The notes beneath the pieces are model-generated. The model made no database searches, was not told where the DNA came from, and saw only the letters and a list, made by a program, of their open reading frames with translations. From an uncultured Pelagibacteraceae bacterium (lineage in GTDB: Bacteria > Pseudomonadota > Alphaproteobacteria > Pelagibacterales > Pelagibacteraceae): a stretch of DNA of 64,000 bases. The translations under genes were made by a program, and so were the position numbers. Position 1 is the first letter of the stretch; the number at the start of each line of letters is the position of its first letter. Of this stretch, positions 11,594 to 48,218 are shown piece after piece. The DNA lies in NCBI GenBank assembly GCA_902543575.1, contig CACBYV010000004.1, forward strand, positions 47,558-111,557, given 5' to 3'.

Positions 11594-12218
11594 TTGGTAA
11601 ACCTACAATTGTTAATTCTCCAGTTGCAACTATCGCTCCAGTTGAATCGTTTTGTACTACACTTATAGTCTCTTTGTCAAAATTTAACATTTTATTCTGT
11701 CTAGACACTGCTCTTTTAAACTTAATGTAACCTAAGAAATTTCCCTTAATTTCATAATCTACTGGAATTTTGTAGTACGAGACCATTTCTTTTGTCAGAT
11801 TATTTTCTGCTTGATCTGTGACCCCGCCTTTTAAGACTGGTTTTGGTTTTTTCTTTTCAATTTTAGAAATCACAAGACCATTTACTGCAGCGTATTTACT
11901 AAGGCTCTGATATAGATCTTCAACTTCAGCTTTTGAATGAAATAAAGTTGATGTTTTTTCAAAGTCAGGTTTCATTTTTTTAATTCTTGCTTTGAAAGTA
12001 ATTATCTCATTTTCAAATTGTGCAATTTCATTTTGCTTTAAAATTTTATCATTATATTTTGCTTTTCTTTCTTTAACCATCGGATTTAAAATGATGTAAT
12101 AAATAATTAAAAATAATATGATTGCTCCAAAACCAGAGCCGAATTTAATTAAAGTTTTCTTTTCAACAGAAGCTAGCTTCTGTTTTAAATCATCCATTGT
12201 AATATTTTTTAAATCCAT
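11580..12218 (-). CDS. pilO: PilO-like pilus assembly protein
   Basis: Single N-terminal TM (FGAIILFLIIYYIIL), coiled coil, C-terminal domain. I prefer the ATG at 12218, which forms a TAATG overlap with the pilMN stop. The ORF track extends to a TTG at 12239. Confidence 0.6.
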   Translation of the reverse strand: MDLKNITMDDLKQKLASVEKKTLIKFGSGFGAIILFLIIYYIILNPMVKERKAKYNDKILKQNEIAQFENEIITFKARIKKMKPDFEKTSTLFHSKAEVEDLYQSLSKYAAVNGLVISKIEKKKPKPVLKGGVTDQAENNLTKEMVSYYKIPVDYEIKGNFLGYIKFKRAVSRQNKMLNFDKETISVVQNDSTGAIVATGELTIVGLPNEFF

Positions 12219-13936
12219 TAAACGCTCTCCAATACACAAGCTATTTTAAAGCCCTTCATAGTTTGCGAATTTTGCTGTTCATTAGGTAATGTCATGCTCG
12301 CTAAAGATGCTTGCGATATAAGCTTCTTATTATTTAAATTACTAATGAGTTTTAAAATGTCTTGATCGCTAAATGCTGATCCTTCGATTATAACTAGGTC
12401 TGCCCCATTATATTCTATAGACTTAAACTTAACTCTTTTAGGTACTGCTGATGCAATTTGAGCCAAAACTCTGAAACTTACAGTTTTATTTGACTTAATT
12501 GATTTGCTAAGTTGCAAAGATTTTAAAATAATTCCAATTTCTTTAGCATACTTATTTTTCTCTAAAGTTTTTAATTCATGAGTTTGGACAATTTCATCGT
12601 AATCGACAATTTTTTTATTTAAATCAGTTATTTGCCAAAAAGCGAAACCAAAAAGTACAATGTATATAACTGCAACAATTCCAACAACTCCTTTGAAAGC
12701 AAAATTTGAAAAAGCTTTTGCCTTTTTTTGCGCAATCATATTTTCTCTATTAGGTAATAAGTTTATATTCTTAACTGCGGTTACAAATTTATAGTATCCA
12801 AATACATCAAGTTTTCTAAATGCCAATCCCATCACAGTTGAAAAATATGAACGATTGTCAATTTTTACATCGTTTTCTAATTGAGCAGGAATTTTAATTC
12901 CTTCAAATGGATCAAATAAATTATATCCTGTATTGACCATATTTTTTCTAAAGCTGCCTAAATAGTCTTCTACATTTTGCAAATTAGATACTACTTTTAA
13001 GTTTCTAATCCTTTTTTCATATTTCTGTTCAAAATCCTGCACAGCTTGTTTAACTTGAGTCATGTATCTTCTTACTAAAGCGTCCATTTCCTCTTGGTTA
13101 TTACTTTCTTGGAGTGTTTTTCTATCCTGTGATCTTATAAAAATATCCGTTATGATTGGATTGTTCTCATATAGTATCATTACATAATTCTCATCTAGAC
13201 CAAATTCCAAAACTGCTGTTAAATTAGAATCTTCAATGGATCCTGCAATTTGATTAATTTGATCTACTGCAGATTTTAGTGCAAAACATTTAACATCAAT
13301 AATTACTGCATTAAGCCCACCTTTTTTAATAATATCTGTGTAGCTATTTATGTCTGATAGCTTTGAAGCTACAAATAAAATATCCATAGTATTTCCAGTT
13401 TTGTCTCTATTAATTACTTGATGAAAAATTGAATAATCATTTAAATTATCAGTTAACTGAACTAAATTTTCCCATAGTGAGTCTGTATCTATTGCTTTTT
13501 TTAATTCTTCATCAGTCATTAAAGGTGCGGTAACTACTCTTATAATTGCACTAGTGACTGGAATTGCTATTGCAGCATTTGTTGTTGTAATTTTCGATTT
13601 TTGTAAGGCTAATTTTAATTCATCAGCGACTTTATCTGGATTTTCTAAAACTGTTCCATTTTCAGGTAAGCCTTCAAATTTATGTACATAAAATCTATCT
13701 AATACCCATTGATTAGCCTTGTTACTTGAAACTTGTGATAATCTTATTTCATTAGATGTTAATTCAACACCTAAAATCTCTTCTCCTTTTATAGCTTGCT
13801 TGCCTAGCCTCTTTTTTAAAAATTTATCAAAAAATCCCTCTTTCTTCTTTTTGCCATCAGCTGCCTGAGGAACTGGAGGTGTATTGCCCTGTTCCTTACT
13901 TTTCTTTTTGAATAGGTTTGCAAAAGGATTTTTCAT
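12218..13936 (-). CDS. pilM: PilM-PilN fusion protein
   Basis: 572 aa. Actin-like PilM region starts at about aa 53 (ILGVELTSNEIRL). The PilN signature INLLP (aa 391-395, nt 12766-12752) is followed by the TM helix GVVGIVAVIYIVLFGFAFW and a PilN-like periplasmic part. Confidence 0.8.
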   Translation of the reverse strand: MKNPFANLFKKKSKEQGNTPPVPQAADGKKKKEGFFDKFLKKRLGKQAIKGEEILGVELTSNEIRLSQVSSNKANQWVLDRFYVHKFEGLPENGTVLENPDKVADELKLALQKSKITTTNAAIAIPVTSAIIRVVTAPLMTDEELKKAIDTDSLWENLVQLTDNLNDYSIFHQVINRDKTGNTMDILFVASKLSDINSYTDIIKKGGLNAVIIDVKCFALKSAVDQINQIAGSIEDSNLTAVLEFGLDENYVMILYENNPIITDIFIRSQDRKTLQESNNQEEMDALVRRYMTQVKQAVQDFEQKYEKRIRNLKVVSNLQNVEDYLGSFRKNMVNTGYNLFDPFEGIKIPAQLENDVKIDNRSYFSTVMGLAFRKLDVFGYYKFVTAVKNINLLPNRENMIAQKKAKAFSNFAFKGVVGIVAVIYIVLFGFAFWQITDLNKKIVDYDEIVQTHELKTLEKNKYAKEIGIILKSLQLSKSIKSNKTVSFRVLAQIASAVPKRVKFKSIEYNGADLVIIEGSAFSDQDILKLISNLNNKKLISQASLASMTLPNEQQNSQTMKGFKIACVLESV

Positions 13937-14061: not shown

Positions 14062-15078
14062 ATGTTTGAAAAGTTAGAAGAGCTTGCAAAAAATAATAAA
14101 AAAATATCTGATTTCCACATTAGATCGGGCTCCCCATTAGCCTATAGGCAAACAGGTGAAATTATAAAAGTCGAAGAAGTTAAGGTAACAGCTCAAGATT
14201 TAAAAGATTTATTGTCTATGAATTGTAATGAGCATGAGCTTAATAAGTTTGATAAAACACATGAACTTGATACCTCGGTTACATTAAGTGGACTAAGATT
14301 TAGGGCAAATTTTTATAAAACTATAAATGGGCCTGCATGCGTTTGTAGAAGAGTAGAAAGTAAAATTCCTGATATGGATCAGTTTAACTTACCACAATCT
14401 TTATATGATATTGTAGATTTTCATAAAGGCTTGGTTTTGGTCACAGGCCCAACTGGATCTGGAAAATCCACTACACTTGCAGCAATTGTAAATGAAATTA
14501 ATAAAACACGAACAGCAAATATTATAACTGTCGAGGATCCAGTAGAATTTATTCATAAAGATATTAAAAGTATTATTTCACATCGAGAAGTTGGAAAACA
14601 AACTGAAACTTTTGCTGCTGCATTGAAAGCTGCTTTAAGAGAAGATCCCGATGTAATTTTAGTTGGAGAAATGCGAGACCTTGAAACTATAAGTTTAGCA
14701 TTAACTGCTGCTGAAACAGGTCACTTAGTTTTTGGAACATTACACACTAGTGGAGCTCCAAGCACTATAAACAGAATAATTGATGTATTTCCACCTGAGC
14801 AACAAGAACAGATTAGAGCACAAATTTCTACATCTTTAAAAATGGTTGTTACTCAAAGATTACTTAAAACAAGAGATGGGATGGGTAGAGTTGGCGCATT
14901 TGAAATAATGAAATGCACAGCCCCAATTCAAAACTTAATAAGAGAAGCAAAAATTCACCAAATTCCAAGTATTATGCAAACAGCTGTTAGAGAAGGAATG
15001 ATTACTATGGAAAAATCTCTTGAAGAATTAGCAAAATCTGGGAAGATAGATCCCGGTGCAGCAAGATCAGAACATTAA
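14062..15078 (+). CDS. pilT: twitching-motility retraction ATPase PilT
   Basis: Walker A GPTGSGKST, ILVGEMRD, LVFGTLHTSGA, PilT-specific PIQNLIREAKIHQI. ATG at 14062 preferred; the ORF track begins at a TTG at 14002. Confidence 0.92.
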   Translation: MFEKLEELAKNNKKISDFHIRSGSPLAYRQTGEIIKVEEVKVTAQDLKDLLSMNCNEHELNKFDKTHELDTSVTLSGLRFRANFYKTINGPACVCRRVESKIPDMDQFNLPQSLYDIVDFHKGLVLVTGPTGSGKSTTLAAIVNEINKTRTANIITVEDPVEFIHKDIKSIISHREVGKQTETFAAALKAALREDPDVILVGEMRDLETISLALTAAETGHLVFGTLHTSGAPSTINRIIDVFPPEQQEQIRAQISTSLKMVVTQRLLKTRDGMGRVGAFEIMKCTAPIQNLIREAKIHQIPSIMQTAVREGMITMEKSLEELAKSGKIDPGAARSEH

Positions 15079-15706
15079 AGGTTTTACTATTTTAGAATTG
15101 CTAGTTGTTATAACAATTGTAGCAATTGTATCAGCTATTGGTTATCCAAATTTTATGAAGTGGAGAGAAGATAGAGAGATACGTGCTGCAATGGAGTCAG
15201 CAGCAACAATGTTATCTTCAATTAATAATTTATCACAAAGAGGCAATTTCCCTTTTGTTCAATTAAAAATTACACCTAATGGAACAACTAATACAACAAT
15301 AACAAGTAAAGGTATGAATGTTAAAACTTTATCTACAAGATTAAATAGTGGGAGTGTAATTGACTGCAATTTAACAAATAGTGGTTATTGGGATAATCAT
15401 TTGGTAGATAAAACCACAAAAGATGTATCAACACATATTAATGCTGAGGGCTCAGTTTGTTTTTCGCAGGATGGCACTCATTACAAAACTTTAGGTAAAT
15501 TAAATTCAAATGTAAATGTTACTGTAGAAGGTAGGATTACTAATCAATATTTAATCATTTGTTCAACATCTAATGCATCAGGCAGTGGCAAATGTCCCAC
15601 CAATCAGGCAGACGGTTTGAAACAACCCGCATATTTGGTAGAGTGGACAAGATTTGGTAACATAAGCAAATTTAAATGGAGTGGTAGTGGTTGGAATAGA
15701 CAATAA
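15056..15706 (+). CDS. minor pilin, FimT/GspH-like
   Basis: 216 aa. GTG start, prepilin leader MQQDQNIKG|FTILELLVVITIVAIV with Glu+5. First of four consecutive prepilin-like genes after pilT. Confidence 0.7.
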   Translation: MQQDQNIKGFTILELLVVITIVAIVSAIGYPNFMKWREDREIRAAMESAATMLSSINNLSQRGNFPFVQLKITPNGTTNTTITSKGMNVKTLSTRLNSGSVIDCNLTNSGYWDNHLVDKTTKDVSTHINAEGSVCFSQDGTHYKTLGKLNSNVNVTVEGRITNQYLIICSTSNASGSGKCPTNQADGLKQPAYLVEWTRFGNISKFKWSGSGWNRQ

Positions 15707-16277
15707 AATTAAAAAATGCGAAAAGGGAATGACATTGCTTGAGGCACTTGTCTCAACTGCAATAATAGGAATTGGTTTTGTTGCTGTTTTTCAAATGGTA
15801 AACTATTCAGTCCAATCTATAGATGTGTCTGGTGAAAGAACAAAAGCTAATTATTTAGTTTCAATGGTAGCAGAGGATCTTATTTCAGAAAAAGAGTCTA
15901 ATTCTCCGACAAAAGACGTCAAATTCATGGATTACTTATTAAGTAATAAGACTAGCTCAAATTCATCATGGAGAATGGGATCATGTTCATCGGGATCGAG
16001 TACCACAGGAAATTTTACTAATGCTGCTCAAAATAAATTTAAAAAGTGGGATGATCGTTTCTCGACGCGGAGAATTAAATGTAAAGGAGCACAAGATATA
16101 AAATATCTAAAAGTTTTTGATATTTGCAACAATAATGCCAGTGGGAATAATTGCACTTACAATAATACAAGAAATTATAACGGCACAGGAATATATGAAA
16201 AATGGATTGTTGGAAAAATGGAGGTCAATCTTAATAGTGGTAAAAAGAAAAAGTTTTTATATTTCCAGATTGATTAA
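15681..16277 (+). CDS. pilV: minor pilin, PilV-like
   Basis: 198 aa. Leader ...KKCEKG|MTLLEALVSTAIIGIGFVAV with Glu+5. Exact start uncertain (GTG at 15681). Confidence 0.6.
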   Translation: MVVVGIDNKIKKCEKGMTLLEALVSTAIIGIGFVAVFQMVNYSVQSIDVSGERTKANYLVSMVAEDLISEKESNSPTKDVKFMDYLLSNKTSSNSSWRMGSCSSGSSTTGNFTNAAQNKFKKWDDRFSTRRIKCKGAQDIKYLKVFDICNNNASGNNCTYNNTRNYNGTGIYEKWIVGKMEVNLNSGKKKKFLYFQID

Positions 16278-17116
16278 TGAAAAAAAAATTATCTAATATT
16301 GCTGGTGTTACATTAATTGAAATTCTTATTGGGATATTGATTTCAGTAATAATGATGGGAGCAATGTTCACATCTTATACTGTAGTAAACAACACGTACT
16401 CTCAAGTTACTGATCGAGCAAAAATTTCAACTGCTGGAAGAGACGTTGTTGGAATGATTATGAGAGATGTTAGAAACGCTGGTTTTAAATATTTTGGAGA
16501 TAATATTAAAACAACTAATGCTCATGCTCCAATTCTCATTACCAAAAGCTCAAATTTCAATACAAGCTGTGATAAAATAGATATTGTCTATGGTGGTGTG
16601 AATTATAATGCCACTAGAAATCCTAAATATCAGTATGAAAGATTTAAAGTAACTTACGAATGTAAAGCTTCAACAATTCCAGATAAAACTTCACCTAAAC
16701 TAAGTGGTGGCGGTTATCCACCAATAAAAGCTTTTGCAATTTATAAAACTAAAGTTAAATGGAATAACACCTCGAATAGTTGGGATAATCCATCAACTGA
16801 TGGAAATGATGCAACTTATCCATCACAGTTGATAGTAGATTATATAGTTGATTTAATATTTAATCCAATTGATGAAACTGGGGTTTTAATAAGCCCTCCT
16901 CCAACTCCCACAAATTCCAACAAAGATAAATTATATAAAATTAAAACTATTGATATCGCAATGACAGTAAGATCAACGAAAGATTTTTTTAGAACATCTA
17001 AAGTTAGAAAAGTATTAGCGATGATTGATAAAAAAAGAGACAAATCAAAAACCGATAAATATTTAAGAGATACTATTGTAGTAACGGCTCATGCTAGAAA
17101 TTTAGGATTAGAATAA
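16277..17116 (+). CDS. pilW: minor pilin, PilW-like
   Basis: 279 aa. Leader MKKKLSNIAG|VTLIEILIGILISVIMM with Glu+5. ATGA-type overlap with the previous gene. Confidence 0.6.
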   Translation: MKKKLSNIAGVTLIEILIGILISVIMMGAMFTSYTVVNNTYSQVTDRAKISTAGRDVVGMIMRDVRNAGFKYFGDNIKTTNAHAPILITKSSNFNTSCDKIDIVYGGVNYNATRNPKYQYERFKVTYECKASTIPDKTSPKLSGGGYPPIKAFAIYKTKVKWNNTSNSWDNPSTDGNDATYPSQLIVDYIVDLIFNPIDETGVLISPPPTPTNSNKDKLYKIKTIDIAMTVRSTKDFFRTSKVRKVLAMIDKKRDKSKTDKYLRDTIVVTAHARNLGLE

Positions 17117-17790
17117 TGAAAAAAAACGAACAAGGATTTGCATTAGTATTATCATTAGTTTTGATGTTAGCAATGTCGTTAATGGGTGGGGCTTTAATTG
17201 TTATTTCAGCAGGAGATCACCGTAGCAATAATAAGAGTGATGAATACCAGCAAACTTTCTATGTCGCAGAAACAGCTTTGATTGAGGGTGAAAAATATGT
17301 TCTTAATAAATTTTTAGGACCTTGGAATACATCTAACCATAAAAGAGATACTTCAAAAAGAGCTTTGCCAGCAAATCAAACTTCTGTTTGGAACGGCGCA
17401 ATGACAAAAAAAAATTATACAACAAGTGACAGCTTCTATTTTAATACTAGTACAAATTGTTATCAAAGTTTCTCAGAAATAGACAAAAGTACTCTTAAAG
17501 TTGTTGCATCCGAAAGTTGGAATTTTGGAAAAGTCTTAAGAGATAGTTTTAATACTAATGCATCAAACCAGGAAAAAACTGAAGCTGAGAGATTGCAGTC
17601 TTATTATTACGAGTTTTTTATATCGAGAATTGGAGCCGCACCTTTTAGAGGATACGGATCAAGCGTTAAAAAAGGCGCTACAGACAAAGGAAACGATGGA
17701 ATGGCCTATAGAGTTTATGGTTGTGGTATAAAAAAAGATGATGACAGAATGATTGTGGCACTAGAGAGCACTATTGTTCTTCCAAAATAA
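17116..17790 (+). CDS. pilX: minor pilin-like protein, PilX-like
   Basis: 224 aa. N-terminus MKKNEQG|FALVLSLVLMLAMSLMGGALIV, lacking Glu+5 as is typical of PilX_N. Position precedes pilY1. Confidence 0.55.
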   Translation: MKKNEQGFALVLSLVLMLAMSLMGGALIVISAGDHRSNNKSDEYQQTFYVAETALIEGEKYVLNKFLGPWNTSNHKRDTSKRALPANQTSVWNGAMTKKNYTTSDSFYFNTSTNCYQSFSEIDKSTLKVVASESWNFGKVLRDSFNTNASNQEKTEAERLQSYYYEFFISRIGAAPFRGYGSSVKKGATDKGNDGMAYRVYGCGIKKDDDRMIVALESTIVLPK

Positions 17791-17853: not shown

Positions 17854-18408
17854 ATGAAAAGATTAGTCCAATTTTTTATAATATTCTTTCTATTTTCAGT
17901 GCCTGCTAATGCTGCGTGTGATTTTATGATTAAAATTGGTGAGAAAGGCACAAAAGTATTTGAAAAGTTTGCAATTCCTCTGCCTGGTTTTAAAGGAATG
18001 TGGTACATGCCTGTTCAATCTCCAGAGGTTTGTCCTAATGATAATTTAAACGAAAATATTGCAGTAGAATATGTATTTTTAGGAGATAAACATGAACAAG
18101 CTAAATTAGCAGCTATAAGAATAATTGTTCTTAATGATGGAAATAATACTGAAAACAATAAATTAACATTGATGAATTATGCTAAAAAAGTTTATGGAGA
18201 TTTTGATACTGGTCAAAATCCTGAAATATTCAACAGCTATAATATTTGGGAAAACGGACAAAGTATTGTCATCTATAAAAGAATGTTAGATGCAAATGAT
18301 TTAATTGAAGAAGAAATTATGATTACAAATTTGGAATATGATAAAAAACTAGGTTTATTTTTTAACGAAATTGAAGCAGAAGCAGAAGGGTTTGATAAGA
18401 AGGAATAA
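17854..18408 (+). CDS. secreted protein of unknown function, translationally coupled to pilY1
   Basis: 184 aa. Signal peptide MKRLVQFFIIFFLFSVPANA|AC. TAATG overlap with the pilY1 start at 18408. No family recognised. Confidence 0.5.
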   Translation: MKRLVQFFIIFFLFSVPANAACDFMIKIGEKGTKVFEKFAIPLPGFKGMWYMPVQSPEVCPNDNLNENIAVEYVFLGDKHEQAKLAAIRIIVLNDGNNTENNKLTLMNYAKKVYGDFDTGQNPEIFNSYNIWENGQSIVIYKRMLDANDLIEEEIMITNLEYDKKLGLFFNEIEAEAEGFDKKE

Positions 18409-21400
18409 TGAATAAGATAAAAATTTTACTATTTAAAATTTTATTTTCTTTAATACTTTTAAGTAACTCAAGTTATGCAAAAAATATACCACCGGGTTCA
18501 GGGATTGGGGATGTTCCAGCAAATATATTAATCTTACTCGATAAATCTGGAAGTATGAGTGTCCGTATGACCAGTGGATCCGGATTTATGTATCCTTACG
18601 CTTCAGCAGCTGATAGCAGTGGAGATCTTTATATTGGACAATACTGGCGCTATGGGATTAAAAAATTCAATTACTCTACTGCAACTGTAGATACAACTTT
18701 TGCATCTAATGGAACATATGTGGGCTCTGGTAGTTGTAGAAGTTATTATCCTTTAAATATGAAAATTCATAATGGATATTTGTATGTAGCCTCTTATTAT
18801 GATCACAGAGTTTTCAGAGTAAATATATCTACTGGAGCATGTGACTGGAATCACTATATCAGATATCCAAGAAATATAGCCATTGATACTGGTAACAGCA
18901 TTCTTTATGCAAATGGGATATATGGAAATGCGGTCGTTCGAAATTTATCTACAAATACAAATATAAATTGTTCTTGGTCTGGTAATTTAAATGGTCAAAC
19001 CAGATATGGTTCAACAGCAGTAGATGCATCTGGAAATAACTTTTACAGCATTAGTTACTCTAGAATGTACAGATTTACAATAAATCAGTCTACAAGATGC
19101 CCAAATACAAATTATTCAGCACAATGGTACTGGGGTGGAAGTTATTCTTTTGGAATGGATAATCATCCCTCTGATGATAACATTTTTTATTTAAACAATT
19201 ATTACTCTCACAGAGTTGAGAAAATAACTTTAAATTCTTCTAAAAATAGAATTCAATCTAGAAAGACAGCAGGAAGATGCTGTACTGGTAAGTCATCATC
19301 AACAAATATTAGAATGTATTACCCATGGGGTGTATCAGTAGATAAAACAAATAATAGAGTGATAAGTACTACATATTATAAAATGTCAGTACATGCGTTT
19401 GATCTCGATCTAGGTTTTTTAAAAGAATTTGGTGGATCCTCTGGAACTAGAATGGATGGGGCAAAAGAAGCTATAAAAGCAATAGTAACTGACTCATCTT
19501 TAACTGCAGGAGTTAACTTTGGTTATGCTTATTGGTCATCAGGTGGAGCTGGTTTTAGATCTTGGAGTGGAAATATTACAACAGGAAGAGCTAATCCCTG
19601 TAATTCTCGAGCATGCTTAAAAGTAAGAGTTCATAAACAAGGTGCATCAAGGATAAACCAAATAATTGGAAGTTTAAACCCTGGTGGCGGAACAAATGCA
19701 GATGACTGGGCTAGAATTGCTGAAGATTATTATCTGAGCAGTAGTTATTCTCCAATTGATAAAAATTTATCCTGTCAAAATAGCTATATATTGGTTATTG
19801 GTGATGGTGATTGGTACAATCATAGCAGAGCTCAAAGTAGAGTTGTCAAACTTTTAAACAAACACAAAATTAAAACTTTTACCGTTGCATTTGGTGGAGG
19901 GTTATCAAGCAATGGTATTAGAAATTTCAGAAGAATGGCCCAAGCGGGTGGAACTAATGATGTTATAATTGCAAACACAACAGCATCGCTTAAATCACAA
20001 TTAAAAGCAGCGATATCACAGGTTATTGCATCTAAACTATCTTTTACTGCTCCTGCAATTACAGCTACTATAGAAAAAGGTGGATCATTATACCAAGCAC
20101 AGTTTGATTATATCCAAAATAAAGAATGGCAAGGTAAATTAACAAGAACAAAATTAAATCCAGATGGAAGTTTAGATCTTAATGATAAAGGAAATTGGGA
20201 CGCTTCAGACAAACTTGAAAAAAGAACAAGTGCTAGAAAAATTTGGAGCCAAGTGCCTGGGGTAGATTATAGAACAAATTATAATAACTTTGTTGATACT
20301 AATTGGAGTTCAATAAACACGCTATTTGAGACAACAGGGAATGAAGTTGCTGGATATCATAATAAAACTGATAGTCCATCAAATACACAAAGATGTAAAA
20401 ATGTTTCTTCGGTCAAAGATGCTGTCAGTGGTGTTAATGAAGATGATATTAAAGGACTAATCAATTTTATTAGAGGTAAAGACTATTTTGATTACGATGG
20501 TGATTGTAATTTAACTGAGAAAAGATCTAAGGCATTGGGAGATATATATCATTCTGAGTTGGTGGTTATTGGAAATCCAGAAGCTGAAACTGCATTTGTT
20601 GGTTCCAATCAAGAATCTTATTGGAGATCTATTAAAGGATATGATGCATGGGCAGCTTCTGTAAAAAGAGATGAAATCATTTATGTTGGTGCCAATGATG
20701 GAATGCTTCATGCATTCAATGCATCAAATGGAGAAGAAGAATGGGCATTCGTTCCTCCATTGTTAGCTGCATCTTTCCCAAGCATGGTTAATGTTAATTT
20801 AAATAGATCTGTTGGTGGTTCAAATGCAATTTATGGTGTAGATGGATCGCTGGTTGCACACGATATGTATTTCAAAAGTGCATTTGACAGCTCTAAACAG
20901 TGGCATACTATTTTAATGGTGCCGTATGGAAGAGGTGGTGGAGGTTTTTCTGTTTTAGATGTAACTAATCCTAAGAAACCGTTACATTTATACTCAGTTT
21001 TGAACGATAAAACTAGACGTGAAGTTCATATAATGGATCATAATGGAACGATAAATACATATAATTACATCCCAACATCATGGCCATTAAGCCAAATGGC
21101 AGAGTCCATTGCAGTCGGTGCAAGTCAATCAACTGACTTTACTTGTAAGACAGATCAAAGCACTAAATGTCAAACACACAATGTTTGGACAATACCTAAT
21201 GTAACTTTATCAAAATCAGATTTAAGAATTACAATAGATGATAAAAATTATACAAGCTTTAGTGTTACTACTAATCTTCAAGGCACAGAGATCAGATTAA
21301 ATAGAAATTTAACGTATTATGGTGGCGATCCAGGGGATGCATCAAAATCAAGCACAAATATGGGTGTATATTTAAGACCAGGTTCTGTTAATACTGGAGT

Positions 21401-22499
21401 AACGACACAACCAGAATATGATTATAGTCAACTTGGTGAAACATGGTCAGCACCTAGAATTTTAAGACTACCTAACAGTGGTGCAGGAGATACAAATATT
21501 GAGGATGATATTTATGTAGCTGTAATGGGTGGAGGATTTGGAACTCAATACGAAGGAGTTGGCTCTAATTTAACTATAGTTAATCTTGAAGACACAAGTT
21601 TCCCAGGAAGAATTCATAAATCTATCCCAATTGACGATTTAACAAGTAACGATATTGTTAATTCTACTCCTGGTACACCAGTCGTTATTACACCTGATAC
21701 AGCAAGAGGAGTGAATTATAGAGGAGCCTTAGTTTACATAAATGATTTAGAAGGAAAAATTACGAAGTTTAATTTAACTAATATGTCTGATGACGGTGCT
21801 GGGAGTGCTATTTCGTTGTATGATAGCACAACATTATTTACTGCAGGCTCTAATCAAACAAATGGAAGATATATGTATCATTCAATGGATGCAACAATTG
21901 GTCAAACAACAAATTCGTTGTGGTTATATACTGGTACTGGAGACTATGAAAGAATTGGATCCACTAATAAAGGAACAGATAATTTAATGCTAGGAATTAG
22001 TGATCCACATTACCCAGCTTACAGAGATGTAGCTGTTGCAACTAAAGCATCAGATTTAACAAATTGTAAAAATACAACTAAAGATACTACGGGAGCTAAA
22101 TGTCCTCAAACCCCTAAAGATGTTGGATGGTATATAACCTTAGATGATTTCCAAAAAGTTACAGCGGAGCCAACGGTATCTAGTGGTTTAGTATATTTTC
22201 CAATATATAAACCTAGCTCATCAGTTAATAAATGTAGCTTAGGTGATGCATTTATTTGTGGAGTAGATGATGAATGTGGAACAAATGTATCAAATAAACT
22301 TGGATCATTTAGGAATAAAAAAGATACTTGCATGTATGTAGGTCAGGGTGTTTTATCTAGAATAGTAGTTTATGCTAACAAGTTATTTGCAAATATTGCA
22401 GGTCAATCAACAAATGCACAGAAGAAAGATTTAGTTGTGCTTGATGCAGCAGCTGGAGGCACTTCTAGCTACAGAAGTTCTTGGAGACAGAACTATTAA
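18408..22499 (+). CDS. pilY1: PilY1-like pilus tip adhesin with N-terminal vWA domain interrupted by NHL-like repeats
   Basis: 1363 aa. Signal peptide, MIDAS DKSGSMS, later vWA elements GGTNADDW and LVIGDGDW. PilY1 C-domain signatures ALGDIYHSELVVIG and IYVGANDGMLHAFNASNGEEEWAFVP. Confidence 0.85.
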   Translation: MNKIKILLFKILFSLILLSNSSYAKNIPPGSGIGDVPANILILLDKSGSMSVRMTSGSGFMYPYASAADSSGDLYIGQYWRYGIKKFNYSTATVDTTFASNGTYVGSGSCRSYYPLNMKIHNGYLYVASYYDHRVFRVNISTGACDWNHYIRYPRNIAIDTGNSILYANGIYGNAVVRNLSTNTNINCSWSGNLNGQTRYGSTAVDASGNNFYSISYSRMYRFTINQSTRCPNTNYSAQWYWGGSYSFGMDNHPSDDNIFYLNNYYSHRVEKITLNSSKNRIQSRKTAGRCCTGKSSSTNIRMYYPWGVSVDKTNNRVISTTYYKMSVHAFDLDLGFLKEFGGSSGTRMDGAKEAIKAIVTDSSLTAGVNFGYAYWSSGGAGFRSWSGNITTGRANPCNSRACLKVRVHKQGASRINQIIGSLNPGGGTNADDWARIAEDYYLSSSYSPIDKNLSCQNSYILVIGDGDWYNHSRAQSRVVKLLNKHKIKTFTVAFGGGLSSNGIRNFRRMAQAGGTNDVIIANTTASLKSQLKAAISQVIASKLSFTAPAITATIEKGGSLYQAQFDYIQNKEWQGKLTRTKLNPDGSLDLNDKGNWDASDKLEKRTSARKIWSQVPGVDYRTNYNNFVDTNWSSINTLFETTGNEVAGYHNKTDSPSNTQRCKNVSSVKDAVSGVNEDDIKGLINFIRGKDYFDYDGDCNLTEKRSKALGDIYHSELVVIGNPEAETAFVGSNQESYWRSIKGYDAWAASVKRDEIIYVGANDGMLHAFNASNGEEEWAFVPPLLAASFPSMVNVNLNRSVGGSNAIYGVDGSLVAHDMYFKSAFDSSKQWHTILMVPYGRGGGGFSVLDVTNPKKPLHLYSVLNDKTRREVHIMDHNGTINTYNYIPTSWPLSQMAESIAVGASQSTDFTCKTDQSTKCQTHNVWTIPNVTLSKSDLRITIDDKNYTSFSVTTNLQGTEIRLNRNLTYYGGDPGDASKSSTNMGVYLRPGSVNTGVTTQPEYDYSQLGETWSAPRILRLPNSGAGDTNIEDDIYVAVMGGGFGTQYEGVGSNLTIVNLEDTSFPGRIHKSIPIDDLTSNDIVNSTPGTPVVITPDTARGVNYRGALVYINDLEGKITKFNLTNMSDDGAGSAISLYDSTTLFTAGSNQTNGRYMYHSMDATIGQTTNSLWLYTGTGDYERIGSTNKGTDNLMLGISDPHYPAYRDVAVATKASDLTNCKNTTKDTTGAKCPQTPKDVGWYITLDDFQKVTAEPTVSSGLVYFPIYKPSSSVNKCSLGDAFICGVDDECGTNVSNKLGSFRNKKDTCMYVGQGVLSRIVVYANKLFANIAGQSTNAQKKDLVVLDAAAGGTSSYRSSWRQNY

Positions 22500-22511
22500 T
22501 CATTAAAAATA

Positions 22512-25109
22512 ATGAAAAAGATTTTACTAAGTATAGTCTTCTTTTTTTTATTTAGTTCAGTTGGTTATGCTGGCCCATGTTTAACAACCATTGCTAGTGC
22601 ATCGACAAATCAATTAGCTTGCGCGGATGATGATATTTTAAAAGTTACTTCTGCTGGGTCAATTACTTACAGTGATAATAAGGCAGTTGATCTAGAAGAT
22701 ATCAGTGGAGTTCAAATTACTAATGATGGAACAATTCAAACAGAGAGCGGAACTAATAAACAAATCGCCATAAATGCTGAGTCATCTTTGAATACTACAA
22801 TTACAAATAACGGAACAATCAACTCAGATAATAAGTATGGTGTAATATTAAGTTATGCAGAAAATGTTGTAATTACTAATAATGCAGGGGCAACAATAAG
22901 TGCTGACGGTAATACTGCAATTTATGGAAAAAACGTTGGTAATTGTCATTTTAATGGTACTAATTGCCATTCAGATTTATCTGGTCAGTCAAATGGTGTT
23001 GGTCTTACACTACATAATCATGGAACCATTACCTCTCAACATGAAACCGTTTGGTTAGGTTCAGGAAGTTCAGGTGCTCACAGGAGCAAAGGTATTAAAA
23101 TCTATAACTATGATGGTGGAATTATTAAAACAACAGATGAAGGAGATAGTCCGATTAAAGGTTTTCATTTAGTTGATTTTGAATTTATTAATTATCAGGG
23201 AGGTACAATTGAAGGTGACGACAGACATGCAGTAAATACTGAACAATCTGAAGATATCAATTTTACTAATAATGGTACAATAACTGCAACAGATAAAAGT
23301 GCATTTTATTGTAAAACATGCTCGGATGTTACTTTTAATAATACCGGAACAATGACATCTGGAAATAACGCTGTAGTAATTTCAAACGGGGATAATATAA
23401 GTATAACAAATTCTGGAACAATAACTGCCACTGCTGATAATTCAGGTTTAAATATAAGTGCATCCGACGGTACCGTCGTTACTAATACAGGGACTATTTC
23501 TGGGGTTGATCATGGAATGCAATCTTCAAATGTAGATAATTCTACAATAACAAATCATGGAACTATTTCTGCAAGCTCCAATTCAGGATATGGACTAGTG
23601 TATGAAAATGATGGAACCAACAGAGTAAATAATACTTTAAACAATTATGGTACAATTAGCGCAACATCAGGTTCTCTTGCAGATGGAATTGGTATTGGAA
23701 AAGGTGCAAGTCCAATGTTTAATATTACGATAAATAATTATGGTACAATTTCAGGATCTGATGATTCTATAAAAATGCTTAATTCTTCAAACACGGGTAT
23801 AAATATAGTTACCAAAGGTGACGGTACATATGTTGGTGAGATTAACCTAAATGATTCATCGACAACAATGACATTAGATTGCAGTATTTCAAAAGATCAA
23901 AAAATAGAAATCCATAACAAAACAAATATGGTTATCACAAATAATCTTTGTGGAAACGATACCTATGAAATATTAGATAGCAATAGCGATCCAGATTCAG
24001 ATAATTCAGAAACAAATGGTTTCTTATATGTTTATGGTGAAGATTTAGATATTGATAGCCATAATAAAAAATATAGATCTGAAATATTTTTATCTAATTT
24101 AAATGATATTTTTAATTCGGTTTCAGAAGAAAAAAAATCTAGTGGATATTATTCTGTAAAAAAAAGAGACAATATTTATGAAAATGAAACAACAGGGATA
24201 ACTGGGGACTTTAAAATTGAAAATGATAATTTTACACCGTTTTTAAGTTATTCTAGCCAGCAAGCAAAATTTAATAATGGAGAGGCTTTAGATAGTGAAA
24301 ATTTAGCTATTGGTTTAAAAAAAGATATTGATTACGAGAAATTTAAATTTTCTGTTGTTTCAATTTTTGGATTAACTCAAAATAAATATTTAGATCTTGA
24401 AACTGAAACACAACAAACAATTTTAAAAGAAAATCTAGGTCAGTTTGCTGCTGTAAATTATAAAGCATCTAAAGAAATAGAATTTGATGATAGTCAAAGT
24501 TTAAATATTGAAGTAGATGGTAAATATGGTTTAAGAAGACTTCCAACTTACTTAACATCTTTTACAGATGGAGATCTTTCAGTTGATGATGCTGTTGATC
24601 AAGTATTATCAGGTGGATTTAATGTTGAGTATTCAAAATCTTTTGAAAATGGCTTCGTTCTTAAGCCATATACTGGCCTATCTTTAAATCAAACTTTGAG
24701 TGAAAAAATTGACATTGTTGCAGACGGTGAAAGAAAAGATATGGCCCATTATATGGATGATGATTTAGCAGTAAAAGCTGGTTTAAATATTAGCAAAAAT
24801 ACTGATAATTTCGGCCTAAACTTTAATCTAGAATTTAATGAACAGAATGGACTTAAAGACAGCCAAGTAAGTATTTCATTAACTAAAGTAATTCAAAATA
24901 ATATTAGCAAAAAAATAGAGGGTCTACCTATTGATCCAGAACTAGAAAAATTATTTGATCAATTACAATTAGCTAAAGAAAATGAGAGATTGGCTGACAT
25001 AAGTGGTAGAGCAGTTGAAGAGAATATAATAATGAAAGAAATGATTATTCAGTTGATAAAAGAAAATAATAAACTAAAGACTGAAAGAAATCTTCTATTA
25101 AAAAACTAA
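22512..25109 (+). CDS. autotransporter-like surface protein: beta-helix passenger with about 13 N-x-G-T-I repeats, putative beta-barrel, C-terminal coiled coil
   Basis: 865 aa. Signal peptide ...SSVGYA|GP. ITNxGTIxA-type motifs recur every 23-31 aa between about aa 68-440. Aa ~560-793 show alternating hydrophobic beta-strand patterns. The last 71 aa are heptad-like. Confidence 0.55.
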   Translation: MKKILLSIVFFFLFSSVGYAGPCLTTIASASTNQLACADDDILKVTSAGSITYSDNKAVDLEDISGVQITNDGTIQTESGTNKQIAINAESSLNTTITNNGTINSDNKYGVILSYAENVVITNNAGATISADGNTAIYGKNVGNCHFNGTNCHSDLSGQSNGVGLTLHNHGTITSQHETVWLGSGSSGAHRSKGIKIYNYDGGIIKTTDEGDSPIKGFHLVDFEFINYQGGTIEGDDRHAVNTEQSEDINFTNNGTITATDKSAFYCKTCSDVTFNNTGTMTSGNNAVVISNGDNISITNSGTITATADNSGLNISASDGTVVTNTGTISGVDHGMQSSNVDNSTITNHGTISASSNSGYGLVYENDGTNRVNNTLNNYGTISATSGSLADGIGIGKGASPMFNITINNYGTISGSDDSIKMLNSSNTGINIVTKGDGTYVGEINLNDSSTTMTLDCSISKDQKIEIHNKTNMVITNNLCGNDTYEILDSNSDPDSDNSETNGFLYVYGEDLDIDSHNKKYRSEIFLSNLNDIFNSVSEEKKSSGYYSVKKRDNIYENETTGITGDFKIENDNFTPFLSYSSQQAKFNNGEALDSENLAIGLKKDIDYEKFKFSVVSIFGLTQNKYLDLETETQQTILKENLGQFAAVNYKASKEIEFDDSQSLNIEVDGKYGLRRLPTYLTSFTDGDLSVDDAVDQVLSGGFNVEYSKSFENGFVLKPYTGLSLNQTLSEKIDIVADGERKDMAHYMDDDLAVKAGLNISKNTDNFGLNFNLEFNEQNGLKDSQVSISLTKVIQNNISKKIEGLPIDPELEKLFDQLQLAKENERLADISGRAVEENIIMKEMIIQLIKENNKLKTERNLLLKN

Positions 25110-47813: not shown

Positions 47814-47855
47814 GAATAATTTATTGAATCTATTGAATTTGGTTTTATATTATTA

Positions 47856-48115
47856 ATGTTGGTTTTCCAACTATGACGATAAACGAATTTCGTAATAACC
47901 ATTACGGACGTGGGGGCAGTACCCACCACCTCCACCATTTTCAACTTATGGGGGTGAATTAGGATCGACGGATGACTAAAAGTTATTCTTTCGTTCGGTA
48001 TTGTTCCGCCGTGAAGGGCAAATTTATAAATGCTAACGAAAGTTACGCACTTGCAGCTTAATTAACTTATTAATTAAGTTACGGGGTCCGGGGCACCTGG
48101 CAACAGAACGCCCCT
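47856..48115 (+). ncRNA. ssrA: circularly permuted (two-piece) tmRNA gene: acceptor piece ending CCA at 47937, ~12-nt spacer, coding piece from 47950
   Basis: T-arm GTGGG-GGCAGTA-CCCAC (47910-47926). The 3' acceptor strand CACCTCC+ACCA (47927-47937) pairs with the 5' GGGGGTG (47950-47956) and includes a G3:U pair. GGATCGACGG box present. Tag frame ends YALAA-TAA. Outer boundaries are approximate. Confidence 0.8.
48032..48061 (+). other. tmRNA tag reading frame ANESYALAA + TAA (resume codon assignment tentative)
   Basis: GCT AAC GAA AGT TAC GCA CTT GCA GCT TAA. Canonical (Y)ALAA ending. The stop is followed by hairpin TAACTTA-TTAAT-TAAGTTA (48063-48081). Confidence 0.6.
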
Positions 48116-48132
48116 AAAAAAATATTTGTTTT

Positions 48133-48218
48133 TGGTGCGGTCAGAGAGACTCGAACTCTCATGGGCTAGTCCCACACGGCCCTCAACCGTGCCTGTCTAC
48201 CAGTTTCAGCATGACCGC
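48133..48218 (-). tRNA. tRNA-Leu (anticodon GAG), CCA encoded
   Basis: The reverse complement folds as acceptor GCGGTCA/TGACCGC, a 3-bp D stem with AAACTGGTAGA loop, anticodon stem CACGG/CCGTG with loop TTGAGGG, a long variable arm, T arm GAGAG-TTCGAGT-CTCTC, and ACCA. Confidence 0.9.

Follow-up and report, generated by a model that had tools for sequence, protein, structure and literature searches.

Introduction

In Myxococcus, the N-terminal domain of PilY1 is found at the extreme tip of the pilus (PMC7541494). The ComC protein of Acinetobacter is a tip adhesin of type IVa pili in which a vWA scaffold carries a lineage-specific insertion (PMC10374093). This insertion, a finger-like protrusion, takes the form of an antiparallel hairpin of two beta-strands with ~90 residues; it is functionally important, varies between lineages and is encoded in a cassette with the minor pilins (PMC10374093). 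The vWA domain of Pseudomonas aeruginosa PilY1 (aa 48-368) is also oversized, with ~320 residues (PMC8806160). P. aeruginosa PilY1 shares with the SAR11 protein described here its signal peptide, the N-terminal vWA domain, in which the DxSxS...T...D MIDAS is perfect, and the C-terminal PilY1 propeller (3HX6); its gene, too, follows fimU-pilVWX. An NHL propeller is not reported for the P. aeruginosa protein.

More distant systems share single features with the SAR11 head. The integrin headpiece likewise unites a beta-propeller with a MIDAS-bearing vWA domain in a single adhesion head, and ligands bind where the two meet or close by. In RrgA and PitA, inserted arms surround the metal site. RrgA (2WW8) and PitA (7W6B) are pilus-tip proteins with a vWA domain and a MIDAS, and both were matched in our analysis by sequence profile or by fold; unlike the SAR11 protein, they belong to sortase-assembled pili, carry arm or hairpin insertions and have no PilY1 C-terminal domain. 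Stand-alone NHL domains (Thin, TRIM71, Brat, the PknD sensor and the bacterial "6-bladed beta-propeller" proteins) consist of six NHL-motif repeats of ~45 residues.

No group of heterotrophic bacteria is more abundant in the surface ocean than SAR11. SAR11 cells have been seen with filaments that are thought to be pili, but adhesion was observed neither in culture nor in the environment, and the function of the pili is an open question (PMC12636525). Here, we have analysed a window of 64,000 nucleotides from an uncultured Pelagibacteraceae bacterium, which contains a pilY1 gene with an unusual head.

Results

The pilY1 gene and its pilus cluster

The open reading frame at 18408-22499 of the window encodes a protein of 1363 residues; it lies on the + strand, as do all features given below. 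Its C-terminal PilY1/PilC beta-propeller (aa 701-1363 and the stop codon; 20508-22499) matched Pfam PF05567 at residues 710-854 (E = 4.7e-11, 42.7 bits against a cut-off of 28.1), and the structure of P. aeruginosa PilY1 (3hx6) was matched by residues 701-861 at E = 4.3e-13. Two more blocks of the domain could be aligned to the PilY1 protein P0042. The EF-hand-like calcium site (DxNxDGxxD) was absent from the C-terminal domain of the window protein; the sequence VDMNSDGFID of P0042 aligned to TPDTARGVNY, and the acidic ligands of the P0042 site were replaced. Since such a site is not universal among the PilY1/PilC family, its absence does not exclude the protein from membership. The motif is said to have been defined by Orans et al. 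in 2010.

The pilY1 gene is adjoined by pilC, pilB, pilQ, pilO and a pilM-pilN fusion, then by pilT, fimU, pilV, pilW and pilX, which judged by their sequences make up a complete type IVa pilus cluster. The minor pilin genes are located upstream in the same operon and on the same strand as pilY1: a fimU-like gene (15056-15706), pilV (15681-16277), pilW (16277-17116) and pilX (17116-17790), with matches to N_methyl, PilV (TIGR02523) and PilX_N. The same gene order was kept in 70-77 of 80 related loci. This genomic context defines PilY1, and together with the PF05567 and 3hx6 matches it identifies the reading frame as a SAR11 (Pelagibacteraceae) PilY1, the predicted tip protein of a type IVa pilus. 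By analogy with Myxococcus and Pseudomonas, the SAR11 protein would also be located at the pilus tip.

Directly upstream of pilY1 lies a gene for a conserved secreted protein of 184 residues (17854-18408), whose stop codon overlaps the pilY1 start codon. It was found at this position in 77 of the 80 loci and had no family match in the Pfam and NCBIfam scans. The protein is possibly an accessory factor of PilY1.

PilY1 itself starts with a putative Sec signal peptide (aa 1-24, ending with NSSYA in front of KN; 18408-18479). The model shows a helix at residues 3-19 followed by low pLDDT, and a signal peptide-like N-terminus was kept in 68 PilY1 orthologues. The middle region (aa 546-700; 20043-20507) contains the acidic motif DYFDYDGDC and has a mean identity of 0.60 among the orthologues; its first 55 residues were modelled with low confidence.

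A predicted vWA domain in two pieces

Of the two vWA pieces, the first (aa 25-52; 18480-18563) opens with a conserved KxLPPGSGxGDVPAN lead-in, which is followed by the modelled strand beta1 (aa 38-45; 18519-18542) and the MIDAS loop D45-x-S47-x-S49 (18540-18554). The loop is part of the sequence ILILLDKSGSMS at residues 40-51. The second piece (aa 346-545; 19443-20042) begins with GTRMDGAKEAIKAIVTDS at residues 346-363 and extends in the models from alpha1 (aa 348-360) through alpha7. It contains the strings GGTNADDW (aa 427-434), SYILVIGDGDW (aa 459-469) and IKTFTVAFGG (aa 487-496), and the MIDAS residues Thr429 (19692-19694) and Asp466 (19803-19805). An insert of 293 residues keeps helix alpha1 (starting at aa 348) apart from strand beta1 and its DxSxS loop (aa 38-49). 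A preliminary description had placed D45 at 18540-18542, the end of the insert at residue 345 (19442) and the helix about 295 residues downstream; these positions and all quoted strings are present in the sequence. D45, S47, S49, T429 and D466 were each invariant in 68 of 68 full-length orthologues, and the MIDAS DxSxS...T...D is complete in sequence and predicted to be a metal site.

Whole-protein scans with Pfam and NCBIfam found only the PilY1 domain in the native protein and neither a vWA nor an NHL match. The split was therefore tested on a spliced sequence, in which the two vWA pieces of the window PilY1 were joined and the insert was removed. Residues 16-48 of the spliced sequence aligned to positions 1-34 of the Pfam profile VWA_2 (E = 3.4e-5, 24.9 bits, cut-off 27), and the profile VWA was matched at its positions 74-169 (E = 1.9e-4, 22.2 bits, cut-off 23.8). 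The C-terminal vWA part alone, unlike the spliced sequence, gave no Pfam vWA match. The relatives P0085, P0104 and P0086 exceeded the Pfam vWA threshold. A profile of spliced homologues matched solved vWA domains, namely 4cn8 (1.1e-4), the LapA vWFA domain 9no5 and RrgA 2ww8, in alignments that run through the splice junction.

We then modelled the spliced window sequence with AF2 in an alignment to full-length homologues. This led to one compact domain (pLDDT 87, pTM 0.86) with the Rossmann-like alpha/beta order b1-a1-b2-b3-a-a-b4-a-b5-a-b6-a. Foldseek matched the model over ~220 columns to solved vWA domains (E ~1e-8); integrin I domains were the best fold matches, and TRAP, PitA, vWF A3 and LapA vWFA were also found (TM 0.75-0.78). 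When the native residues 1-600 were modelled, residues 38-45 formed a strand, with a mean pLDDT of 92 for the block of residues 41-50; the two-domain model had a pTM of 0.62 and linker blocks with a pLDDT of 65-77. Taken together, the profiles and models support that the two pieces form one vWA domain.

The packing of DKSGSMS into the downstream vWA fold, as it had been proposed, is supported by the AF2 strand, the spliced fold, the alignments crossing the junction and the insert-free relatives described below. A second beta1-DxSxS motif was not observed downstream in the vWA region; the only further D-x-S-x-S of PilY1 is DASKS at residue 977, inside the C-terminal propeller.

The insert as a six-bladed NHL propeller

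The insert (aa 53-345; 18564-19442) starts two to three residues past the last MIDAS serine, within the loop that joins beta1 to alpha1. In the AF2 model of residues 1-600 it has 24 strands in six groups of four with a pLDDT >90. The modelled blades 1 to 6 correspond to 18585-18731, 18732-18863, 18864-19004, 19005-19139, 19140-19307 and 19308-19442, respectively. The sequence shows six repeats that follow the pattern [YF]-P-x-x-[IV]-x-[IV]-D-x-x-G/N-x-[IL]-Y-[IV]...R-[IV]-x-[KR]-[IF]. Six NHL-type repeats had been noted earlier, with four strings quoted as examples; these four are present and make up the six repeats together with two more. The repeat spacing, given then as 41-58 residues, was 39-59 residues when measured from the YP-equivalent positions, a small discrepancy.

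With Foldseek, the insert found propellers, the best size-normalised match being the six-bladed Pizza6 (TMt 0.76). A profile of the insert family matched the solved NHL domains of Thin (1e-20), TRIM71, SOQ1, Brat and PknD with E-values from 1e-20 to 9e-11, and Pfam NHL (PF01436) was found in 13 of 15 family inserts (best 1e-9). The window insert alone reached 17.1 bits against Pfam NHL, under the cut-off of 20. A repeat HMM built from the canonical NHL repeats of a relative detected four significant repeats in the window insert (E = 5e-13). This HMM match and the profile match to NHL domains at 1e-20 show that the repeat pattern is not due to chance. The four-stranded blades, the Foldseek hits and the NHL profile matches bear out the earlier proposal of a propeller at residues 52-345, and from sequence and model together residues 53-345 were confirmed as a predicted six-bladed NHL propeller.

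Four cysteines of the insert, C110, C145, C188 and C231, are nearly invariant. Only seven positions are invariant in the insert alignment, and these are largely glycine, cysteine and core aromatic residues. We considered whether the propeller could be an enzyme at the pilus tip, e.g. a lactonase or an SGL/YvrE-like hydrolase. The homologues P0043 and P0086 bear the JGI name "sugar lactone lactonase YvrE", and the inserts of P0086 and P0104 matched Pfam SGL (E = 2e-15 and 7e-11), though no single stretch was significant by itself. However, the lactonase names are automatic annotations, the best matches were the non-enzymatic NHL domains of Thin, TRIM71, Brat and the PknD sensor, and no conserved catalytic or metal-binding constellation was found in the insert alignment. 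An enzymatic propeller is therefore highly improbable.

Distribution of the insert among relatives

Relatives of the window PilY1 head are encoded in 205 species-representative genomes, as found by a locus search with an alignment of 7 sequences spanning the ~600 N-terminal residues of PilY1. The best 80 of the 205 matched over essentially all 600 residues, and 79 of these 80 are Pelagibacteraceae or Pelagibacterales records, including Ca. P. ubique HTCC8051. An insert of 251-410 residues was present at the site of the window insert in 81 of 90 representative relatives. The layout is therefore not a peculiarity of the window gene; as far as sequences can tell, a propeller inside the vWA domain is the normal PilY1 of the Pelagibacteraceae. 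One locus (L081) has a GC content of 29.7% and a PilT that is only 46% identical.

In the insert-free relatives P0117 and P0186, the same motifs are joined directly and read LDxSGSMGGT-NIAIAKKGIKALV. P0186 matches Pfam VWA without a break from profile position 1. In one subgroup of insert-bearing relatives, with P0086 and P0104, the repeats of the insert are of the canonical NHL type (E = 1e-43 and 1e-30 for Pfam NHL), and VWA follows after the repeats, starting at profile position 7-20. In a homologue search, free-standing NHL proteins of bacteria shared up to 60% identity with the P0086 insert. The search with the N-terminus of P0086 was dominated by generic NHL proteins. In the lineage of the window, the insert is strongly diverged from the stand-alone NHL repeats; it also differs from them in its nested position within another domain and in its four nearly invariant cysteines.

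The insert is part of a continuous reading frame

The failure of Pfam to find a vWA domain in the native protein, and the database gene calls P0011, P0018 and P0019, which begin right after the insert, could point to an artefact, i.e. a chance or vestigial DxSxS motif or a fusion or assembly error with no real split domain. However, the same continuous reading frame with an invariant MIDAS was present in 68 independent genomes. In addition, marine metatranscriptome contigs carry the insert and cross both junctions without any joint, and all structure and profile tests were concordant. We give an artefact almost no credence.

A genuinely split gene was rejected for P0019, the one of the three calls that was checked. 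On the contig of P0019 the neighbouring genes are broken up as well, a sign of frameshifts from the assembly. A removal of the insert in the manner of an intron or intein was likewise rejected, since the RNA contigs are contiguous across both junctions. The junctions (SM/SV and SS/GT) have no intein residues.

Variation and selection

Among the 68 orthologues, the mean pairwise identity was 0.41 for the insert, 0.60-0.62 for the other PilY1 regions and 0.87 for the beta1-MIDAS segment. Compared with the window, pilT was 84-99% identical, and the insert was 27-58% identical in most loci. The dN/dS of the insert was 0.16-0.21 versus 0.03-0.12 in the rest of the gene, values that place the insert under purifying selection overall. 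The cluster is otherwise conserved, and its fastest divergence is seen in the insert and in the adjoining 184-residue gene, which diverges about as fast as the insert. The divergence of the two is correlated (Spearman 0.85), which is inseparable from their shared phylogeny. The identity of the gene downstream of pilY1 is decoupled from that of pilY1, suggesting recombination at the border of the cassette.

The rapid divergence of the insert and its neighbour and the apparent recombination at the cassette border would fit an escape from phages or grazers that bind the pilus, with the propeller as an exposed, exchangeable surface. The dN/dS, however, is purifying rather than diversifying, and the insert fold, the four cysteines and the motifs of blades 1 and 6 are conserved. 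Escape would also be compatible with a binding function. We regard escape as the cause of the variability as very unlikely. Such variability is also expected of a module that is merely tolerated or surface-exposed.

Discussion

Our analysis indicates that the SAR11 PilY1 head is a split vWA domain with a MIDAS and a nested NHL propeller, and there is a good chance that it works as a two-module tip adhesin. The adhesive role is what we infer for this head. To our knowledge, every vWA domain has its beta1-alpha1 loop on the MIDAS face. The propeller would therefore be tethered there, distally on the pilus, and, by vWA topology, should sit beside the ligand-binding face. The invariant MIDAS would bind an acidic group of the target in a metal-dependent way, and the variable propeller, especially blades 3-4, would supply or tune the specificity for the target. 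Retraction of the pilus would then draw this target, which might be a surface, a polymer or DNA, towards the cell.

In the searched literature on PilY1 and SAR11 pili, we found no description of a propeller nested in a PilY1 vWA domain. The preliminary description knew of no described PilY1 with this layout. This holds, within the searched literature, for the propeller inside the PilY1 vWA domain, but not for the principle, as lineage-specific insertions into the vWA domain of PilY1/ComC are already published (PMC10374093). In contrast to the ComC finger, which is located at other vWA positions (PMC10374093), the SAR11 insert is a complete six-bladed propeller of 293 residues directly past the MIDAS serines. 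Compared with P. aeruginosa PilY1, the SAR11 protein has ~290 extra residues, which form a domain of their own in the loop between beta1 and alpha1.

The short distance of two to three residues between the insertion and the MIDAS serines raises another reading, in which the propeller is a lid or regulator over the MIDAS that is displaced by force or ligand, making the head auto-inhibited or mechanosensitive. For A. baylyi ComC, additional folds have been described that surround the MIDAS motif like a shield (PMC10374093), and mechanosensitivity with an involvement of cysteines is reported for the vWA domain of P. aeruginosa PilY1 (PMC8806160); the SAR11 insert has its four nearly invariant cysteines. 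A pure lid, however, has no need to be the most variable segment of the protein, and SAR11 is without obvious surface-sensing behaviour. We consider a lid unlikely and prefer the two-module adhesin.

A more specific form of the two-module adhesin would be that the propeller and the MIDAS make up one composite, integrin-head-like binding site at the SAR11 pilus tip with a variable propeller face, a proposal that is tentative and rather doubtful. In integrins, the alpha-I vWA domain is inserted into a propeller of seven FG-GAP blades, whereas in SAR11 a propeller of six NHL blades is inserted into the vWA domain. No homology is implied between the two arrangements. If the composite site is true, the metal would hold the acidic group of the target and the propeller face the rest, and the alleles of blades 3-4 would set the targets of the ecotypes (polymers, DNA, particles or partner cells). 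This would give a first molecular access to what SAR11 pili do.

The split explains why the vWA domain was missed by domain scanners and how some homologues came to be named after a sugar lactone lactonase. For protein architecture, the locus offers a natural case of a propeller nested in a MIDAS loop, the inverse of the integrin alpha-I arrangement, with insert-bearing and insert-free relatives both at hand for comparison. For SAR11, the propeller-bearing head marks the likely contact surface of the pili. The distal head, predicted as a bimodular unit of an invariant MIDAS and a fast-evolving propeller, could be expressed alone and screened for ligands.

Results

The pilY1 open reading frame (18408-22499, + strand) encodes 1363 residues. 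Its PilY1 propeller domain was detected at residues 710-854 with a Pfam score over the threshold, and residues 701-861 matched the structure of P. aeruginosa PilY1 (3hx6, E = 4.3e-13). On the same strand, pilT, a fimU-like pilin gene, pilV, pilW, pilX and a gene for a secreted protein of 184 residues lie 5' of pilY1; pilC, pilB, pilQ, pilO and a pilM-pilN fusion are found on the opposite strand. Together, the pilus genes around pilY1 make up a type IVa pilus cluster that is complete. The fusion is a single ORF of 572 residues (12218-13936, - strand) with PilM_2 and PilN Pfam domains.

The preliminary description had proposed that a single vWA domain of PilY1 is split at its MIDAS, the metal-ion-dependent adhesion site, by a propeller of six NHL-like repeats. 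The segments quoted for this were all found, ILILLDKSGSMS at residues 40-51, GTRMDGAKEAIKAIVTDS at residues 346-363, GGTNADDW, SYILVIGDGDW and IKTFTVAFGG further downstream, and the four repeat strings. As described, D45 is encoded at 18540-18542, and 19442 is the last base of residue 345. In the native protein no Pfam match to a vWA domain was obtained. When residues 53-342 were removed, VWA_2 matched residues 16-48 (profile positions 1-34, E = 3.4e-5) and VWA matched at profile positions 74-169 (E = 1.9e-4), both with scores slightly under the curated cut-offs. The C-terminal part on its own matched neither vWA model. A profile of ten homologues spliced in this way matched the solved vWA domains of PTMP1 (4cn8, 1.1e-4), of LapA (vWFA, 9no5) and of RrgA, a pilus adhesin (2ww8). 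In these matches the splice junction was traversed by the alignment, as exemplified by vPaniLiLLDksgsmsags...ketrlegakeaikaivt, which aligned with MDSNILIVLDISGSMADAS...LSRLELAKQAISALL.

The spliced window sequence was modelled with AlphaFold2, using full-length homologues as alignment input. This yielded a single compact domain with the canonical order of vWA elements (pLDDT 87.2, pTM 0.86), for which Foldseek returned integrin I domains, vWF A3, TRAP, PitA and LapA vWFA (E ~1e-8, TM 0.75-0.78, ~220 columns). In the model of native residues 1-600 (pLDDT 83.6), a strand was formed by residues 38-45, the block 41-50 had a mean pLDDT of 92 and helix alpha1 began at residue 348. Among relatives free of the insert, P0117 reads ANVLIMLDTSGSMGGT-NIAIAKKGIKALVQDPEL, and P0186 reads LNVIFLVDSSGSMFSGGKYLAVKSAIESVLDSS with a contiguous Pfam VWA match from profile position 1. 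All five MIDAS residues (D45, S47, S49, T429 and D466) were without variation across 68 full-length orthologues. The sole other DxSxS of the protein is at residue 977, in the C-terminal domain. Six independent lines (Pfam, solved structures, the two models, the insert-free relatives and the MIDAS residues) agree that the vWA domain is really split; for the two-domain model, the way beta1 would pack is judged indirectly, from these lines.

Between residues 63 and 342, the model of residues 1-600 showed 24 strands that fall into six four-stranded groups, mostly with pLDDT >90. Cutting the insert at the modelled blade boundaries revealed six units that share a pattern of the type YP-x-x-[IV]-x-[IV]-D-x-x-G/N-x-[IL]-Y-[IV]...R-[IV]-x-[KR]-[IF]. 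The number of repeats was therefore as first described, but their spacing was 39-59 residues instead of 41-58. Foldseek returned beta-propellers, and the top size-normalised match was Pizza6 (TMt 0.76), a designed six-bladed protein derived from an NHL domain. A profile from 15 diverse inserts matched solved NHL domains, namely those of Thin (1e-20) and TRIM71 (2.8e-17) and those of SOQ1, Pizza6 and Brat; the PknD sensor was matched at 9e-11. Pfam NHL matches were obtained in 13 of these 15 inserts; the insert of the window scored 17.1 bits, under the cut-off of 20. An HMM of the canonical repeats of the homologue P0086 detected four significant repeats in it (E = 5e-13). These results identify the insert as an NHL propeller of six blades, much diverged in the lineage of the window; the initial observation is real, and its interpretation as a vWA domain split by a propeller is supported.

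The Pelagibacteraceae assembly AG-918-A03 was 99% identical to the window across the 600 N-terminal residues of PilY1. Relatives of this region were found in 205 species-representative genomes, and in the best 80 the match spanned practically all 600 residues. Among these 80, 79 were Pelagibacteraceae/Pelagibacterales records, including Ca. Pelagibacter ubique HTCC8051, and one was labelled a Rhodospirillaceae MAG (L057). To survey the insert, 1.84 billion cluster representatives were scored with residues 343-1200, and in the matching proteins we measured how far the alpha1 equivalent lies from DxSxS. An insert of 251-410 residues was present in 81 of 90 proteins, a gap of <=15 residues in 6 and one of 16-100 in 3. 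The nested-propeller PilY1 is the standard SAR11 form.

A second, remoter insert-bearing group has proteins of ~1065-1250 residues; one member, P0100, is labelled Pelagibacteraceae at NCBI. Textbook NHL repeats were found in the homologues P0086 (Pfam NHL E = 1e-43) and P0104 (1e-30), followed by VWA beginning at profile position 7-20. The P0104 locus is a syntenic pilus cluster from an organism of 29.7% GC, with PilT only 46% identical to that of the window. Between the P0086 insert and free-standing NHL proteins of bacteria, identity reached 60%, which fits an origin of the nested domain by insertion of a stand-alone propeller. The combination of NHL, VWA and PilY1 Pfam matches is already visible in precomputed annotations. 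JGI gives the name 'sugar lactone lactonase YvrE' to P0043, an NHL protein, and to P0086 and P0201, which are insert-bearing PilY1 homologues; in these homologues the automatic name comes from the nested propeller, and the name masks their pilus function. The gene calls of P0011, P0018 and P0019 begin at the Met of TRM-GA..., directly behind the insert, which gives the look of a split gene. At the locus L083 (2938-7100), the pilY1 region consists of ORFs of 339, 852 and 186 residues. The adjoining SpoIIE and CHASE2 genes are also fragmented, which points to assembly frameshifts there and disfavours a real gene split.

Within the Pelagibacteraceae, mean pairwise identity was 0.87 for beta1-MIDAS, 0.41 for the insert and 0.60-0.62 for the other PilY1 regions. 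Blades 3 and 4 were the most variable (0.33-0.34), 1 and 6 the least. PilT was 84-99% identical to the window, the insert 27-58% in most loci. In two close pairs dN/dS was 0.16-0.21 for the insert and 0.03-0.12 for the rest of pilY1. Constraint thus acts on the insert, although less than on any other part of pilY1. At least 20 metagenome runs from marine samples contained the exact allele of the window, and so did metatranscriptomes, where RNA-derived contigs, from runs that may include some DNA, spanned both insert junctions jointlessly.

The 184-residue ORF (17854-18408, + strand) lies between pilX and pilY1, and its stop overlaps the pilY1 start. It has a Sec signal peptide, occupies the same position in 77 of 80 Pelagibacteraceae loci and had no Pfam or NCBIfam match. 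Its divergence is about that of the insert (32-67% identity in most loci); the distant locus L081 has an ORF of 171 residues in this slot. The protein may serve as an accessory factor or a chaperone of PilY1. In the C-terminal domain, the EF-hand-like calcium site, which we take to be DxNxDGxxD, reads VDMNSDGFID in the homologue P0042 and aligns with PDTARGVNY in the window (~21690-21716, residues ~1095-1103). Since the acidic ligands are missing, calcium control at this site is probably lost, judged from the alignment. An acidic motif, DYFDYDGDC (20481-20507, residues 692-700), just ahead of the C-terminal propeller, is kept in the homologues inspected and could be an alternative metal site.

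On the 3' side of pilY1, a secreted protein of 865 residues with NxGTI-type repeats (22512-25109, + strand) is encoded in 49 of 80 loci; a Pfam search gave no significant match. Its identity does not follow that of pilY1; in locus L037, for example, it is 95%, against 33% in the insert. This decoupling suggests that recombination has a boundary at the pilY1 3' end. It may be related to the 'autotransporter adhesin', a much larger gene, beside coastal SAR11 pilus genes (PMC12636525). Elsewhere, ARAGORN reported a tmRNA with an asterisk (47842-48218, tag ANESYALAA), a flag that we take to mean a permuted tmRNA; a tRNA-Leu(gag) called on the opposite strand (48133-48218) overlaps the 3' end of the tmRNA.

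Discussion

It is established that every vWA domain has its beta1-alpha1 loop on the MIDAS face, from which we infer that the propeller is tethered there. The PilY1 N-terminal domain is located at the extreme pilus tip in Myxococcus cryo-ET (PMC7541494), and a P. aeruginosa study cites the same position (PMC8806160). From the tethering and the tip position we propose that the head is a tip adhesin of two modules. Its MIDAS, which is invariant, would capture an acidic group in a metal-dependent manner and the variable propeller would supply or tune the specificity. Alternatively, the propeller on this face could be a lid over the MIDAS, or its variability could be that of a pure decoy surface. 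That it is an enzyme is the weakest alternative, because the insert has nearly zero invariant polar residues and its top matches are non-enzymatic NHL domains. An adhesive function of the nested-propeller head is the reading we favour.

Inserted arms are also present in the vWA domains of the Gram-positive tip adhesins RrgA and PitA, both of which were matched by the vWA domain of the window in profile or fold searches. Integrins also pair a propeller with a vWA domain, but there the nesting is reversed. P. aeruginosa PilY1 has an oversized vWA domain (residues 48-368) with a perfect MIDAS. The vWA scaffolds of Acinetobacter ComC/PilY1 carry lineage-specific insertions, one of them a finger of ~90 residues that is required for function, and it was concluded that insertions of different origins modify the scaffold (Iruegas et al. 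2023, PMC10374093). That PilY1 vWA domains carry insertions is, as a principle, already published. In the searchable literature we found no description of an NHL propeller in PilY1 or of a SAR11 PilY1 structure; what is new is that the lineage-specific insertion in the vWA head of this PilY1 is an NHL propeller, complete and placed at the MIDAS loop. This unusual architecture is a concrete target for finding what SAR11 pili bind.
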